64,000 bases of DNA, taken from NCBI GenBank assembly GCA_965224025.1, contig OZ245033.1, positions 3,584,001 to 3,648,000 of the forward strand. Reading direction: 5' to 3'. Within the stretch, counting starts at the first letter, position 1, and the number at the start of each line of letters is the position of its first letter. The translations under genes and the position numbers were made by a program. The notes below the pieces were generated by a model, which worked only from the letters and a program-made list of their open reading frames with translations, did not search any database and was not told the DNA's origin. This DNA comes from Candidatus Multivorans sp. (GTDB lineage: Bacteria; Acidobacteriota; Thermoanaerobaculia; Multivoradales; Multivoraceae). Positions 513 through 64,000 of the stretch are shown piece after piece.

Positions 513-2151
513 CGGGACGCGACTCGCCAGCCCTCACCGGCCCGGCCGGAGCCTCGTCATGGCCCGCCGGGGCATGGCGGCGACATCCCATCCGCAGGCA
601 ACGCTTGCGGGCCTCGACATGCTGCGCGCCGGCGGCTCGGCGATCGACGGCGCGGTCGCGGCCGCCGCGATGCTGGCGGTGGTCGAGCCGATGATGACCG
701 GAATCGGGGGCGACGCGTTCCTGCTCTACTACCGGGCCGATCCCGAAGGCGGGCCCGGCGAAGTGCTGGGCCTCAACGGCAGCGGCCGCTCGCCGGCGGG
801 GCTGGCTCGCGAGGCGCTTAACGGAGAAGCGATCGAAGCCGACTCGTGGCCGGCGGTCACCGTCCCCGGCGCGGTCGATCTCTGGGCGACCGCGCACGAG
901 CGATTCGGCCGCCTCCGGTTTGCCGATCTGCTCGGCCCGGCGATCGAGACCGCCGAGCAGGGCTTCCCGGTCAGCGAGCGCGTGCAGAGCATGTGGCGCG
1001 CCTACGTGGACAGGTTGCGCCGCGACCAGGCGGCCGCGACGCATTGTCTCCCGGACGGCGACGCACCGGAACTCGGCGCTCTCTTCCGTTCCGCCGCCCT
1101 CGCGCGCTCGCTCCGTCGCATCGCACGGGACGGCCGGGACGCCTTCTACCGTGGACCCATCGCCGAGGAGATCGTCCGCTACGCCCATCGCACCGGCGGC
1201 TTCCTCCAGCTCGCGGACTTCGAGCGCCACGCGTCGACCTGGGTCCAGCCGATCGGCACCCGCTACCGAGGCCGCGAGGTCGCCCAGTTGCCGCCGAACG
1301 GACAGGGCCTGGGCGTGCTGCTGATGCTCAACCTGCTCGAGAACTTCGATCTGGCAGCCATGGACCTGGGAGGCGCCCTTCACACCCACCTGCTGGTCGA
1401 GGCGAAGAAACTGGCCTACGCCGACCTCCACGCTCACGTCGGCGATCCGGACGGCCATCCCCTGCACAGCGGCGGCGGCGTGCCGCTGCGCGAGCTGCTG
1501 GACAAGGGCTACGCCCGGGAACGAAGTCGACGGATCGATCCGCACCGCGCGGCATCGATCGTCGGGGCGGGCGAGATCCCCACCGGCGGAGGTCGCGTCG
1601 GCTCGGACACCGTCTACCTGGCGGTGGTCGACGGCGACGGCAATGCCGCCTCCTTCATCAACTCCCTCTTCGCGCCCTTCGGCGCCGCGATCGTGGGCGG
1701 AGACACGGGCATCCTGCTCCACAACCGCGGCGCCGGCTTCACGCTCGAGGCCGGACACCCCAACGAGTACCAGCCCGGCAAGCGTCCCTTCCATACGATC
1801 ATCCCCGGCATGGTCCTGAACGCAGGGAAACTGGAGCTCTGCTATGGCGTGATGGGCGGCCCCTTCCAGCCCCAGGGGCACGTGCAGCTCCTGACCAACC
1901 ACTACGATCACGGCCTTTCCCTGCAAGCGGCGGTCGACCGGCCGCGCTGGCGACACACCACGGGCCTGGAACTCCTGTGCGAACGCGGAACGGAACCGGG
2001 GACCGTCGCCGGCCTCGAGGACCTCGGCCACCATGTGCGGATCGCCGGCGGCGCCGAGTTCGGCGGCGCCCAGGCGATCGGCGTCGACCGCCACGGCACG
2101 CTGGCCGGCGCCTCGGATCCCCGCAAGGACGGAGCTGCGTTGGGTTACTGA
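499..2151 (+). CDS. ggt: gamma-glutamyltransferase
   Basis: Motifs EPMMTGIGGD, TVPG, PPNGQG, autoprocessing Thr in 'SDTVY', PGKRPFHTIIP, GVMGG, SDPRKDG. Start ATG499 or ATG559 uncertain. Confidence 0.92.
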   Translation: MCSGSGTRLASPHRPGRSLVMARRGMAATSHPQATLAGLDMLRAGGSAIDGAVAAAAMLAVVEPMMTGIGGDAFLLYYRADPEGGPGEVLGLNGSGRSPAGLAREALNGEAIEADSWPAVTVPGAVDLWATAHERFGRLRFADLLGPAIETAEQGFPVSERVQSMWRAYVDRLRRDQAAATHCLPDGDAPELGALFRSAALARSLRRIARDGRDAFYRGPIAEEIVRYAHRTGGFLQLADFERHASTWVQPIGTRYRGREVAQLPPNGQGLGVLLMLNLLENFDLAAMDLGGALHTHLLVEAKKLAYADLHAHVGDPDGHPLHSGGGVPLRELLDKGYARERSRRIDPHRAASIVGAGEIPTGGGRVGSDTVYLAVVDGDGNAASFINSLFAPFGAAIVGGDTGILLHNRGAGFTLEAGHPNEYQPGKRPFHTIIPGMVLNAGKLELCYGVMGGPFQPQGHVQLLTNHYDHGLSLQAAVDRPRWRHTTGLELLCERGTEPGTVAGLEDLGHHVRIAGGAEFGGAQAIGVDRHGTLAGASDPRKDGAALGY

Positions 2152-59720: not shown

Positions 59721-60878
59721 CTACTCGCCGCCAGTCGCCGCGGCCGCCGCGTCGGCTTCCAGCAGCCGGGCCCCGCGCATGATGTTCCCCATCGCGTAGT
59801 TCCCCTCGTGGCAGGCGTACTCGTAGACCCTGCCGCCCGCCGTCGGCCACGGGAACTCACCGCTCCAGGCCGACTCCCAGGTGTTGGGGTCCTCGACCGT
59901 GAAGCTGTAGTTCAACGTGTTCTCGTCGATCCGGCTGAAACGCTCCGTGACCTTGAGGCTCTCGCCCGCGCCATAGGCGTACATGCCCGGCTTCTTGCCG
60001 AAGTTCTTCGTCTCGACAACCAGGGTGTCGCCGTCCCAATGCCCGATCGAGTCGCCCATGTAGCTCGTCATCCCTTCCGGCAGGTGCCTGCCGCCGATTC
60101 GGATGATCCGGGCGTCGTGGATCATCTCGGCGAGGATCATCACGTAGTCCTCGATCTGGACCACCCGCTTCAGATTGTTGTAGGCGGTCGGCAGCATCGG
60201 CGGACCCGAGGTCGAGCCGAAGCCGAGAACGCAACGCTCACCGAGCGGCCGCTGCTCCATGTCGTCGTACGGACCCGGGCCTTCGTTCTCGAGCCACCAT
60301 GCCGTGCCCGTGTTCTCGCGAAACAGGGAGAAGAACGCCATCCGCGCCTGCTGGGCGGCAGGCTTCATCTTCGGCAGCCGGCCGTTCGGGGGATCGAACA
60401 CCAGGGAGGTGCGGAACTTGCCGTCCAAGGCAATCGAACCGCTGCCGTAGTCCAGCCAGAAGTCGTTGTAGCCGCCGACGTTACCCGCGGCGCCGGGAGA
60501 ACCGTCGCCGCCCGGCGGCGGCGCTTCGCGGGTCGGATCGCTTGCTACGAGCGCATCCGCCCGGCGGGTGGCGACCGCGTTTGCGATCTCCTCCGCTTCC
60601 TCCGGACTCAGGTACAGATTGTCGCTGAACTTCTCATCGCGTTCGAGCGGCGTCAGCGTGGCGATGTCGTAAGTGCCGGTGAGGTCGGGGCGACCGCTCG
60701 CGGTGCGGGGAACATCGCCGTCATCGGCGGCCGCCAGCGGGGCGGCGGCAAGCAGGGCCGCGGCGCAGAATGCCGCGCCGAGCGCTGTGAAACGCGTCCT
60801 GATCCCTTCGACGAAGCGGCCTTCGCTGCCGGCGGCGGCGACCTTGTCGGCCCGATCGATCTGGTTCAAACCCTTCAT
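59721..60878 (-). CDS. secreted conserved hypothetical protein
   Basis: [39 protein letters not shown]; SD AAGGAG. Confidence 0.8.
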
Positions 60879-61094
60879 CCGAGTCTCCTTTCCTCGCCGT
60901 TGCCGGCAACCGGTTCGATGGCCTCGTTCTGGGGACCCTCCAGCGCTTCGCCGAGTGGCCACCGCCTGATCGCGCAGTGTACAGCAGCCCCCGGCCAGGG
61001 TTGCTACACTCGCGGGTGTTTCCGCCCCCTGGCGCCGAACTCCGGTCCCGAAACGAACGAGAAAAGCACGCAATCCGAGAACCGGGAGACTTCC

Positions 61095-61619
61095 ATGATC
61101 CGCTGCACACCCCCGGCGCTCCTCCTTGCCGCCGCCGCGTTCGCCTCAACCTCCGCCAGCGGCGCTTCCCTCGCCGTCGGCGACGCGGCGCCGGACTTCA
61201 CGCTGCCCAGCACGGACGGCGCCGAGGTGACCCTGTCGTCGTTCGCGGGGCAGAAGAACGTCGTTCTGGCCTTCTTCCCCAAAGCCTTCACCAGCGGGTG
61301 AACGATGGAAATGAAGGGATACCAGGCTGGTATCTCCGACTTTGTGGACAGTGATTCCATCGTCTTCGGCATCAGCGCCGACAAACTGGACGACAACAAG
61401 AAGTTCGCAGCCGACCTGGAACTCGACTTCGCGCTCCTCAGCGATGTCGACGCCGCGGTAATCAACCAGTACGGCGGGACGATGGAGCAGTACGCCGGCC
61501 TCGCCAAGCGCGTGACCTACGTGGTCGGCAAGGACGGCAAGATCGCCTACATCGGCGAAGGTAGCGAGGCAATGGACCCGACCGGCGCGAAGAGTGCCTG
61601 TCAGGGACTGGGCGACTAG
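61095..61619 (+). CDS. exported peroxiredoxin (AhpC/TSA, BCP/AhpE-like) selenoprotein, Sec at codon 69 (TGA 61299-61301)
   Basis: SD GGGAG, signal peptide, [18 protein letters not shown][TGA]TME..GISAD..LLSD..R.TYVV..DG.I in one frame; TGA sits at the PxxxTxxC peroxidatic Cys position. Confidence 0.88.
61316..61336 (+). promoter_or_regulatory. bacterial SECIS-like hairpin
   Basis: GGGATACCA-ggc-TGGTATCTC stem starting 15 nt after the UGA, with G in the apical loop. Confidence 0.75.
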
Positions 61620-61634
61620 CGTCGGCGACCTGTC

Positions 61635-62090
61635 TCAGCCTTGGGTGGCCGCCGAGGCGGCTTCCGGCCTCGGCTGATACAACTCCACCCGATTCCCCTC
61701 CGCGTCCCTGATCCACGCGAACAGGGCATAGCCCTCGTCGTCCCGGCGCAGCGGCTCGACGCCGCGTTCTGCTAGGTGCGCCAGCACCATGCCCAGATCG
61801 CGCACCCGCAGGTTGACCATGAACGGCTGGTCGCCGTACATGTCCTCCTGGCCCGTGCCGTCGTTCGTGGCCATCCGCGGTACCGGCCGCTTGGCCTTCA
61901 TGATCGCGAAGGTCGTGTCCATGACCCAGTTCTCGTCATCCGGATCCGCGGCCACGTAGCGCACGTAGAAGGCACCGAACTCCTCGCCGCCCTCGAACTC
62001 GATGCCCAAGTGCTCCGTGTACCAGTCGGCCAGCAGCTTCGGAGCCTCGCTGAAGATGAAGGCGCCGCCAACGCCGTCGATCAGGCTCAC
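61635..62090 (-). CDS. VOC/glyoxalase family protein
   Basis: GVGG.F....P..L..WY...LG, FMVNLRV.DL, FAWI.D.EGNRVELYQP. Confidence 0.88.
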   Translation of the reverse strand: MSLIDGVGGAFIFSEAPKLLADWYTEHLGIEFEGGEEFGAFYVRYVAADPDDENWVMDTTFAIMKAKRPVPRMATNDGTGQEDMYGDQPFMVNLRVRDLGMVLAHLAERGVEPLRRDDEGYALFAWIRDAEGNRVELYQPRPEAASAATQG

Positions 62091-62154
62091 GAGGCGGCCG
62101 CGGGCAGCACCACGCCTCCCACTCTCCCCTGCGTCGCCCGGCTACGCCGCACGC

Positions 62155-63837
62155 TCATCGGAAGGAAACCCGCGTGCGCGTGCTGACGGTCTGGTCACTT
62201 ACCGGGTCGTGGATCGCGACAACGAGATCGTGGGGCTTGCGGCGCAGGGTCAACGTCGCATCGTAGGGCATCACGGCCTCCGGCGCCGGCCGGATCCGCC
62301 CGCGCAGGTTGATCGGGATCAGGGGGATCGGGGCCTGCTGGCCGTTGCGGTCGACGACCGCGAAGCGCAGTTCCAGCCTGGCGAAGAACCGGTCCTGGTA
62401 CGGGACCAGCGGGAAGTGGCCGATCGGAATGTAGACGGTCACGGGAACCAGCATCTTGCGCAGGCCGGTCCTCTTGGCAGCGCCGATCTCCACCTGCAGC
62501 ACCGGTTCGCCGCGGGTCAACTCCCCGCCCGGAAACAGGAGCCGTCCCTGCGTCTCCATGTCCGCCTCGGCCCGCCGCGAGAGATCGAGGTAGCCGCGGC
62601 GGGAACGCACCCGCAGGTCGGGCCTGAGGACCTGTACCTGCACGTCGTGGGCACGGTCGTCGCGCCGGTAGTGGGGAATGAAACCGAGCCAGTAGTAGTT
62701 CGCGGTGTCCCTGCTCGCGTTGCGCAGCGCTTCCAGGTTCGACCCGGCCAGGAACGCCTCGCCACCGGTGTCCCGGGCCATGTAGCGGAAGTTCCCCCAC
62801 CGCGCCATGCTCGGCTGGTTGCTCTGCTCGTCGATCGGGTAGATCGTGTACCCGAGCAGGTTCGCCGTATCGATCAGGCGATCGAGAACCTCGCGGTCGC
62901 TGCGCACTCCGATGTTGAGGCCTTGTGCCGGGAAGTTCCCCCGCGGCCAGTCGCCGGCGAGCAGTAGCAGCGCCTTGCGGCCCTCGGGTACGTCGAGCGC
63001 CTGCATCGTCGAGGTCACCGCCGTTATCGAGAATTCCAGCTCGCGCAGATTCCGGTCGACCTCCGCTTCGGCGCCGAGGGAGGGAATCCGCAGCCCGGGA
63101 AGGCGCGCCATCCTCGCCCCCGGCAGATTGTCGAACGCCGCGGACACTCCGTCGGCATTCGACAGATCGGGGAAAGGAAGACCAGTCTCTCCCGTCGGCA
63201 CGAGTCCCACTCCGACGTCGCTTCCCATGGCGCCGGGACCCCGTCTCGCCATCGCCGCCTGGCGTGTCGGCAGATTGGGCGACCCCAACTGACCGCGGAA
63301 GCCCTTGCCGGTGTCCAGTTGCTGAAGCGCCTCGCGGGTCCGCTCCCGATCCGTCGTGAAGGGGCTCAGCATCTCGAGCCGCGAGCCGCTCTGGACCACC
63401 ACCGCCACCTGATCCCGGGGGCCCAGTTCATCGAGCTGGTCGGCAAGCCCGCGCAGCACCGGTCGCCGGAACTGGACCAGCGTGTGGTCGTCATCGACGA
63501 AGACGACGTAGTTCGTCGGGACGCTGTCGCCCCCACCGACCGCGAGCGGCGCTTCGGCACCGGACGCCTCGATCGCCCGGTTCTCCAGGATCTCGGTGAA
63601 GTAGTCGACGTCGACCGGAAAGCCGTCCACGAAGATGCGGAAGTCGTGCGCCTCAAGACCGTGAACCCGGTTCCCGGCCTTGTCCTCGACGACGACCTCC
63701 ACGTTGACGACCCGGACATCGATCTCTTCGCCGAAGATGGCATCGAGCGGTGGGGCCGAATCGGGCTCCTGCGCGCCCGCGGGGACGCAGAGAACCAGGG
63801 CGGAGCAGGCAGAGAGCAGGAGTAGTTTCTTCAGCAT
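62155..63837 (-). CDS. secreted VWFA-related (Acidobacteria-type) domain protein
   Basis: Signal peptide, IDVRVVNVEVVV.D..G..V.GL...DF, GRKALLL, A.DTGG, YYWLG, H.V.V....L.VR.R.GY. Confidence 0.85.
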   Translation of the reverse strand: MLKKLLLLSACSALVLCVPAGAQEPDSAPPLDAIFGEEIDVRVVNVEVVVEDKAGNRVHGLEAHDFRIFVDGFPVDVDYFTEILENRAIEASGAEAPLAVGGGDSVPTNYVVFVDDDHTLVQFRRPVLRGLADQLDELGPRDQVAVVVQSGSRLEMLSPFTTDRERTREALQQLDTGKGFRGQLGSPNLPTRQAAMARRGPGAMGSDVGVGLVPTGETGLPFPDLSNADGVSAAFDNLPGARMARLPGLRIPSLGAEAEVDRNLRELEFSITAVTSTMQALDVPEGRKALLLLAGDWPRGNFPAQGLNIGVRSDREVLDRLIDTANLLGYTIYPIDEQSNQPSMARWGNFRYMARDTGGEAFLAGSNLEALRNASRDTANYYWLGFIPHYRRDDRAHDVQVQVLRPDLRVRSRRGYLDLSRRAEADMETQGRLLFPGGELTRGEPVLQVEIGAAKRTGLRKMLVPVTVYIPIGHFPLVPYQDRFFARLELRFAVVDRNGQQAPIPLIPINLRGRIRPAPEAVMPYDATLTLRRKPHDLVVAIHDPVSDQTVSTRTRVSFR

Positions 63838-63851
63838 CAGCGACTTCCCTC

Positions 63852-64000
63852 TCACTTGAAAGACACCATAACCCGCTCGCTGAGCGTTCTCCTGGTCAGA
63901 GGATCGTGCACCGAGACGACCAGATCGTGGGGTCGGCGGCGCAGGGTCAGGGTTGCGTGGTAGGGCATGACGGCATCGGGGGCCGGCCTGTTCCGCCCGC
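63852..64000 (-). CDS. C-terminus of a tandem paralog of the VWFA-related protein (5' truncated by window edge)
   Basis: Reads RPAPDAVMPYHATLTLRRRPHDLVVSVHDP..VSFK*, closely matching RPAPEAVMPYDATLTLRRKPHDLVVAIHDP..VSFR* of the next gene. Confidence 0.85.
   Translation of the reverse strand, partial: GRNRPAPDAVMPYHATLTLRRRPHDLVVSVHDPLTRRTLSERVMVSFK

Follow-up and report, generated by a model that had tools for sequence, protein, structure and literature searches.

A probably exported selenocysteine peroxiredoxin encoded by a single UGA-containing frame in Candidatus Multivorans (Acidobacteriota)

The window considered in the current analysis is a stretch of 64,000 nucleotides of Candidatus Multivorans sp., corresponding to C1:3584001-3648000 of a genome of 5.14 Mb that is available in 3 contigs and has a G+C content of 67.6%. 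Translation of positions 61095-61619 on the forward strand reveals a single frame of 174 codons followed by TAG (ATG at 61095, TAG at 61617-61619), of which the sole in-frame interruption is a TGA at 61299-61301, codon 69. Under translation table 11 this frame is split into a stub ending in ...FFPKAFTSG and an open reading frame of 104 residues at 61305-61619. The features of the locus are as follows.

61084 to 61089, forward strand: Shine-Dalgarno-like GGGAGA, read from the sequence, 5 nt upstream of the ATG
61095 to 61619, forward strand: complete selenoperoxiredoxin coding sequence, translated with UGA69 as selenocysteine (Sec), with a domain across the TGA and orthologues collinear over residues 1-172
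61095 to 61175, forward strand: putative export leader at the N-terminus (about 27 residues), in which a hydrophobic core is accompanied by small residues and one Arg; cleavage probably after SAS or SGA
61278 to 61301, forward strand: active-site motif P62-K-A-F-T66-S-G-U69 (PxxxTxxU) with the UGA at 61299-61301, known from the translation and from an alignment in which 19 Cys homologues all have their peroxidatic Cys at the position of U69
61302 to 61363, forward strand: possible lower helix around the hairpin, 61302-61310 pairing with 61355-61363
61316 to 61336, forward strand: predicted upper hairpin of a SECIS element, 9 bp with the loop GGC, judged by fold, codon identity, pairing and covariation
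61509 to 61511, forward strand: codon of Arg139, the arginine conserved among peroxiredoxins and found in all 54 sequences aligned
61599 to 61601, forward strand: codon (TGT) of Cys169 in KSACQG, the candidate resolving Cys of the last helix, kept in all 54 sequences aligned

The preliminary description of this DNA had proposed that two adjacent open reading frames hide one exported selenocysteine peroxiredoxin, and that they form one frame is borne out. The Pfam family AhpC-TSA (PF00578) has been assigned to residues 28-153 of the read-through protein over profile positions 1-124 of 124 (E-value 2.5e-33; 115.1 bits against a cut-off of 26), and the Redoxin profile matches the same protein. 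As the AhpC-TSA match covers residues on either side of codon 69, the domain spans the TGA. The entries of at least 70% identity found in a protein database search are all nameless fragments of 100-104 residues. The gene is confirmed to be real and is mis-annotated in the public databases.

Contigs from two RNA libraries, both derived from relatives, bridge the TGA; among the differences listed for them, which leave 52 aside, none falls at 61299-61301. They are record 10 of X19 (61040-61763, 66 differences) and record 18 of X22 (61194-61618, 34 differences), in each of which carry-over of DNA is possible. Such coverage by the libraries of relatives is no proof of transcription, and the parts left uncovered are uninformative. 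A scan for promoters and terminators predicted no promoter at the locus, and its sole predicted terminator there is the SECIS hairpin taken on the minus strand.

No partner gene adjoins the peroxiredoxin gene, the upstream gene being divergent and the downstream gene convergent. The divergent open reading frame (59721-60878, minus strand) encodes 385 residues with an N-terminal hydrophobic leader and has no match in Pfam or NCBIfam. The convergent one shows a marginal match to a glyoxalase fold (20.7 bits against 20.6). It is followed by a gene at 62155-63855 (minus strand) for a VWA protein that matches the acidobacterial TIGR03436 type (4.1e-41). Upstream of the VWA gene, an open reading frame at 63852-63999 (minus strand) has a C-terminal end very similar to the tail of the VWA protein (…HDPVSDQTVSTRTRVSFR compared with …HDPLTRRTLSERVMVSFK). 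These similar tails suggest that the two are tandem paralogues.

The TGA codon is conserved throughout the genus. A six-frame search revealed the orthologue in 25 of 25 genomes (own genome included; 66-99% identity), each with one TGA and all at the same codon; the orthologue L014, from G012, a genome that is 86% complete, is frameshifted or truncated at its 3' end. The 31 closest loci in named public genomes, titled Candidatus Multivorans, Thermoanaerobaculia, Vicinamibacteraceae, Holophagales or Acidobacteria, all have TGA at this codon, as do an Acidobacteriota locus of 61% identity and a Bryobacteraceae locus of 48% identity. Close orthologues with TGC or TGT, which the preliminary description had named as speaking against its reading, are thus encountered neither among the 25 same-genus genomes nor among the 31 named close relatives.

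A wider sample of the phylum comprised 401 genomes, 162 of them with a match at E <= 1e-22. Two genomes of this sample, G088 and G189, contributed no sequence to the comparison. From the better-scoring TGA matches outside the genus 36 distant loci were taken, some matches (that of G088 included) being passed over, and six loci among the better-scoring matches without a stop served for comparison. The peroxidatic codon is TGA in 36 of the 36 distant loci and TGC or TGT in all six stop-free loci, and the position of the TGA is kept down to 37% protein identity. Full-length homologues from the protein database (45-59% identity, called peroxiredoxin or redoxin in their sources) have a Cys at column 69 in 19 of 19 cases, and the alignment with Cys homologues that the preliminary description had recommended thereby places the UGA at the peroxidatic Cys. 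The alignment of the UGA with the Cys of homologues, together with its retention in orthologues, supports, at the level of sequence comparison, the reading of this gene as that of a selenoprotein.

The machinery for the insertion of Sec, predicted earlier to lie elsewhere in the genome, has been located. The genome encodes SelA (347.8 bits), SelD (257.4 bits) and SelB, the last recognised by its wing domain (wing-3, 67.7 bits) inside a frame of 589 codons, and a tRNA-Sec with the anticodon tca is situated on C1.

A hairpin of 9 bp with a G-containing loop about 23 nt after the UGA had been noticed in the preliminary description; it is present, conserved and covarying. Its 5' arm occupies 61316-61324, its loop GGC 61325-61327 and its 3' arm 61328-61336, the loop beginning 23 nt after the UGA. 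The 28-nt hairpin piece alone folds with -11.1 kcal/mol (z = -2.78, 1 of 200 shuffles being as good). For a 72-nt piece the energy is unexceptional (z = -1.25, 22 of 200 shuffles as good), so that it is conservation and covariation, and not energy, that speak for the hairpin. The apical codons TAC CAG GCT GGT are identical in all 23 distinct coding sequences of the genus (L014 excluded), and nowhere else in the gene does GCT form the majority at an Ala column or GGT at a Gly column. Within the genus 94.8% of the cells of the upper helix are paired; covariation is thin at this evolutionary depth, both sides changing in 3 of 18 pairs, a count reached by 91 of 500 shuffles.

The family alignment of the hairpin comprises 43 sequences, namely 7 members of the genus hand-picked for diversity from the 25, and all 36 distant Sec forms. 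Across it 7 of the 9 pairs change on both sides, with a covariation score of 0.223 as against 0.109 for shuffles (0 of 500 shuffles reach it), and slid registers all score below the true one (0.044-0.136). The helix is kept in distant members, mostly with a bulged U. The common hairpin is absent from 10 of the 43 sequences, 74.6% of the cells are paired, and some sequences fold into a different stem with a longer loop. Two other TGA-containing paralogues of the genome also have hairpins with GG-starting loops, situated about equally far from the UGA. A scan of 60500-62500 against Rfam (E <= 10) gave six weak matches and no SECIS family. Bacterial SECIS elements vary widely, and models exist for some of them only. 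Conservation and covariation support the identification of the hairpin as a SECIS element conserved at the RNA level. A lower helix (61302-61310 with 61355-61363) around the hairpin is possible only: the pair 61310/61355 changes from A-U to G-C in 6 of 17 distinct sequences, other pairs break in some of them, and the G-C pair at column 9/60 is broken in 6 of the 17. The distant relatives were aligned over the first 54 nt, which end before the 3' arm of this helix.

Pro62, Thr66 and Arg139 are present in the window protein, in agreement with the peroxidatic motif recognised earlier. Thr66, Sec/Cys69, Arg139 and Cys169 are invariant in an alignment of 54 Sec and Cys forms (37-55% identity), which leaves out two distant Sec loci, L066, whose start could not be placed, and L070, which is without the C-terminal Cys. 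Cys169 corresponds to the KSACQG cysteine that had been pointed out as the only one of the mature protein, and this holds, the other Cys of the frame (Cys4) being part of the leader. A C-terminal Cys occurs in 24 of 24 complete same-genus orthologues and in 35 of the 36 distant Sec forms.

The best solved relatives by sequence are PrxQ of Sulfolobus tokodaii (2ywn/4g2e; 2.4e-22) and AhpE of M. tuberculosis (7e-18). An AlphaFold model generated from the 54 sequences (pLDDT 88, pTM 0.81) places Sec69 at the start of a helix formed by residues 67-78 and Cys169 in the last helix, residues 163-173. A Foldseek search with the model has Bcp1 (3drn; 1e-15, TM 0.79) at the top and includes AhpE (1xvw; TM 0.81), at 32-37% identity. 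Domain, motif and predicted fold all assign the protein to the peroxiredoxins of PrxQ/BCP-AhpE type, and no NCBIfam model matches it at cut-off, the best being the BCP model (85.3 bits against 140). By its invariance, Cys169 is the probable resolving residue. Placement of the resolving Cys in helix alpha-5 characterises the Prx5 subfamily and is not known as the arrangement of PrxQ or AhpE.

The Pro of the motif is kept in all 19 Cys forms and in the genus of the window. Among the distant Sec forms (L040-L075) it is replaced in 29 of the 34 aligned, by Val in 27, Ala in 1 and Ile in 1, as in YVLAFTGGU. These Sec sequences are related to one another, and the replacement is given as an observation and not as a statistical test. 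A sister subfamily with the motif WFPKAFTGG-U/C (L115, L118, L124, L131 and L139) has no C-terminal Cys and likewise includes Sec forms. The metagenome-assembled genomes that encode these bear the titles Planctomycetota, Terriglobia and Gammaproteobacteria, and one of them is titled Klebsiella pneumoniae.

The N-terminal region, judged by inspection and simple scores, has the features of a signal peptide, as had been suggested. It contains no acidic residue, a run of 24 residues free of charged or strongly polar ones, and small residues before the start of the domain at residue 28. Leaders of 25-27 residues occur in the orthologues of the genus, of which 24 of 25 were scored (L021 was dropped as its start had not been captured): all 24 have a single Lys or Arg close to the N-terminus, are free of acidic residues over the first 20 positions, reach a 10-residue hydropathy mean of at least 1.9 and have small residues ahead of the domain. 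Leaders are also present in 19 of 19 Cys homologues, the starts of which come from independent gene callers. Residues 1-27 of the AlphaFold model are of low confidence and without secondary structure. Cytoplasmic AhpE aligns from residue 25 of the query and leaves residues 1-24 unaligned, and the first 24 residues are therefore an N-terminal extension. Extension and leader features support, without proving, the export of the protein, which is probably periplasmic. Export together with this arrangement of Cys had been called unusual in the preliminary description. A leader and the C-terminal Cys are indeed present, but they are traits of the family, common to 19 of 19 Cys homologues.

The leaders of the Sec forms contain a single Arg or Lys and are of the Sec (secretory) type. 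Five Cys homologues (P0028, P0029, P0034, P0040 and P0043) have leaders of the form S/T-R-R-x-x-x-L-G, which resemble twin-arginine (Tat) signals. Cys and Sec forms may be exported by different routes. A distant Sec form (L051, genome G360) has a lipobox-like leader (…LVSIGC-QK) and might represent a lipoprotein form of the enzyme.

A frame with an internal TGA could also be a damaged gene, in which a change of TGC or TGT to TGA or a sequencing error has broken a Cys peroxiredoxin, the pieces being dead or only the 104-residue piece being made. Gene callers do split the gene, its closest database entries are fragments, and L014 has its 3' frameshift or truncation; yet every one of the independent genomes in the three sets (25 of 25, 31 of 31 and 36 of 36) has the TGA at the identical codon, over the range of identity given above, protein-level conservation extends through both halves, and the Pfam domain runs across the codon. 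Moreover, a variant contig of run X1 (record 4, 61266-61408) shows four differences, all of them listed, and none is in the TGA. The conservation of the TGA effectively refutes a pseudogene or an assembly error, to which we attach hardly any probability. Just as improbable is a reading of TGA as Trp or Gly throughout the genome (codes 4 or 25) in place of a site-specific Sec. In-frame TGA codons do occur in several thioredoxin-fold genes, including 3 of the 14 AhpC-TSA matches of the genome; however, TGA terminates 2290 of the 3768 open frames of at least 400 codons, the sel genes themselves are free of internal stops, each affected gene has one TGA, always at the position of a redox Cys, and a tRNA-Sec is encoded along with the full Sec pathway.

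A further explanation accepts the selenoprotein and differs in its type: the enzyme would be of the 1-Cys kind, like AhpE, or a thiol-disulphide oxidoreductase, with Cys169 in a structural or partner-binding role, and perhaps anchored to the membrane by an uncleaved leader. The presence of the 1-Cys enzyme AhpE among the closest solved relatives by sequence and structure, and the sister subfamily that is devoid of the C-terminal Cys, are in line with it. On the other hand the mature protein has no Cys besides Cys169, which is invariant in 54 of 54 sequences across the Sec and Cys forms, at 37-55% identity, and small residues precede the domain in all the leaders scored. We consider this explanation unlikely. 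The reading preferred here is that the locus is very probably one gene for an exported, probably periplasmic peroxiredoxin of PrxQ/BCP-AhpE type with Sec as the peroxidatic residue. The UGA, the SECIS hairpin, the Sec machinery, the peroxiredoxin residues and the leader all support the periplasmic Sec-peroxidase proposed in the preliminary description.

In the mechanism suggested by these features, SelB with Sec-tRNA(Sec) would bind the hairpin while the ribosome is positioned at the UGA, and Sec would be inserted. The N-terminal leader of Sec (secretory) type would then direct passage through the inner membrane. Once the enzyme is in the envelope, Thr66 and Arg139 would position the selenolate of Sec69, which may reduce H2O2 or an organic hydroperoxide and thereby turn into a selenenic acid; attack by Cys169 of the last helix would yield a selenenylsulphide. 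By analogy, a periplasmic thioredoxin-like protein might reduce the latter with electrons from the three-domain DsbD of the genome. This protein (DsbD_N, DsbD_TM and Thioredoxin_7) is encoded by the only DsbD_TM gene of the genome. According to the available text of PMC3322552, experiments have shown that PprX, an exported Cys enzyme, is reduced by TlpA, which receives its electrons from ScsB, and also by the DsbD gamma domain.

Two more leader-bearing peroxiredoxin-like selenoprotein genes have been identified in the genome. The one at C1:591607-592032 (minus strand; L027, 823..2262, minus strand) has the motif W-U-P-Y-C (UxxC) and a C-terminal DsbD_N-like domain (AhpC-TSA 3.6e-30, DsbD_N 8.6e-12), and a hairpin with the loop GGUCG follows its UGA; a TGA is present in all of the roughly 20 same-genus matches listed for it. 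The other, at C1:3795040-3795525 (plus strand; L028, about 1438..2064, plus strand), has the motif G-W-U-P-Y-C (AhpC-TSA 3.6e-26) and a 7-bp hairpin (loop GGU, z = -3.71) after the UGA.

In an unrooted maximum-likelihood tree of the 54 sequences the window protein groups with a clade of Cys forms (99/90). Its group is nested in a clade of Pro type that comprises 19 Cys forms and 4 Sec forms (100/99), and all the Val-type sequences are Sec forms. The tree requires 4 switches between Sec and Cys, at least 2 of which are forced by well-supported branches, and as it is unrooted the direction of the switches is not shown. The sampling is uneven: the Cys sequences come from a database of called proteins, which is unable to contain Sec forms, and the Sec sequences from genome scans. 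In the set of loci drawn from the sampled species genomes, every member of the family that has the last-helix Cys is a Sec form.

The close orthologues are nameless fragments and no NCBIfam model matches at cut-off; a selenoprotein has therefore been missed in Acidobacteriota, and the use of selenium in this phylum is underestimated. We tentatively propose, with a confidence that falls a little short of probable, that the protein belongs to an uncurated phylum-wide family of extracytoplasmic Acidobacteriota selenoperoxiredoxins with Sec and a last-helix resolving Cys, which together with the two exported Sec peroxiredoxin-like proteins and DsbD would constitute a selenium-dependent peroxide defence of the envelope. 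The protein would place a selenoenzyme on a peroxiredoxin scaffold outside the cytoplasm. The natural Sec/Cys pairs within one clade and the Sec variants without the Pro could be used to test the contribution of Sec to peroxiredoxin catalysis.

Sec-peroxiredoxins with TxxU have long been known, as the available text of PMC1088965, PMC1794560 and PMC13188914 indicates; the first was PrxU in 2001 (cited in PMC13188914). In its available portion, PMC1794560 counts 12 Sec-peroxiredoxins in bacterial genomes with 5 Cys-to-Sec events, and credits Acidobacteria with 3 selenoprotein families and 4 selenoproteins. Sec-peroxiredoxins and the exported Cys peroxiredoxin PprX having already been described, no new principle is involved; some features of the window protein are variant, namely its probable export, the last-helix Cys and the lack of a curated model. 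In the literature found, as far as its text is available, there is no exported Sec-peroxiredoxin and no member of the window clade, Table S3 of PMC1794560 being a place where members may be listed. Candidatus Multivorans is not mentioned in the papers listed by a search for exported Sec-peroxiredoxins.

The TxxU Sec-peroxiredoxins of the surveys (Zhang and Gladyshev 2005, PMC1088965; Zhang et al. 2006, PMC1794560; the 2026 review PMC13188914) share with the window protein the AhpC/TSA domain, PxxxTxxU, Sec in place of the peroxidatic Cys and a SECIS element after the UGA. The interconversion of Sec and Cys described in PMC1794560 is shared too, with 2 to 4 switches in the present tree. The available text of these surveys does not mention export or a last-helix Cys, whereas the window clade has the latter and is probably exported. 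PrxU of Eubacterium acidaminophilum (NF040737) and Prx-SUH (NF045827) are likewise Sec-peroxiredoxins; with 41 bits against 270 and 22.8 bits against 298, respectively, the window protein is a member of neither family.

AhpE (1xvw) and the archaeal Bcp1/PrxQ proteins (3drn, 2ywn/4g2e), the best matches to the window protein in sequence and structure, are cytoplasmic, leaderless and Cys-using, and AhpE is a 1-Cys enzyme. PprX of Caulobacter crescentus (Cho et al. 2012, PMC3322552), as described in the available text, has a signal sequence on a peroxiredoxin of BCP/PrxQ type, to which the putative leader of the window protein would correspond, and a resolving Cys distant from the peroxidatic residue, like the candidate Cys169. 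This likeness is one of description and not of sequence comparison, and PprX uses Cys where the window protein has Sec. The electrons of PprX are provided by a membrane protein of the DsbD family (ScsB, via TlpA, with DsbD-gamma also effective), and the genome of the window has its three-domain DsbD.
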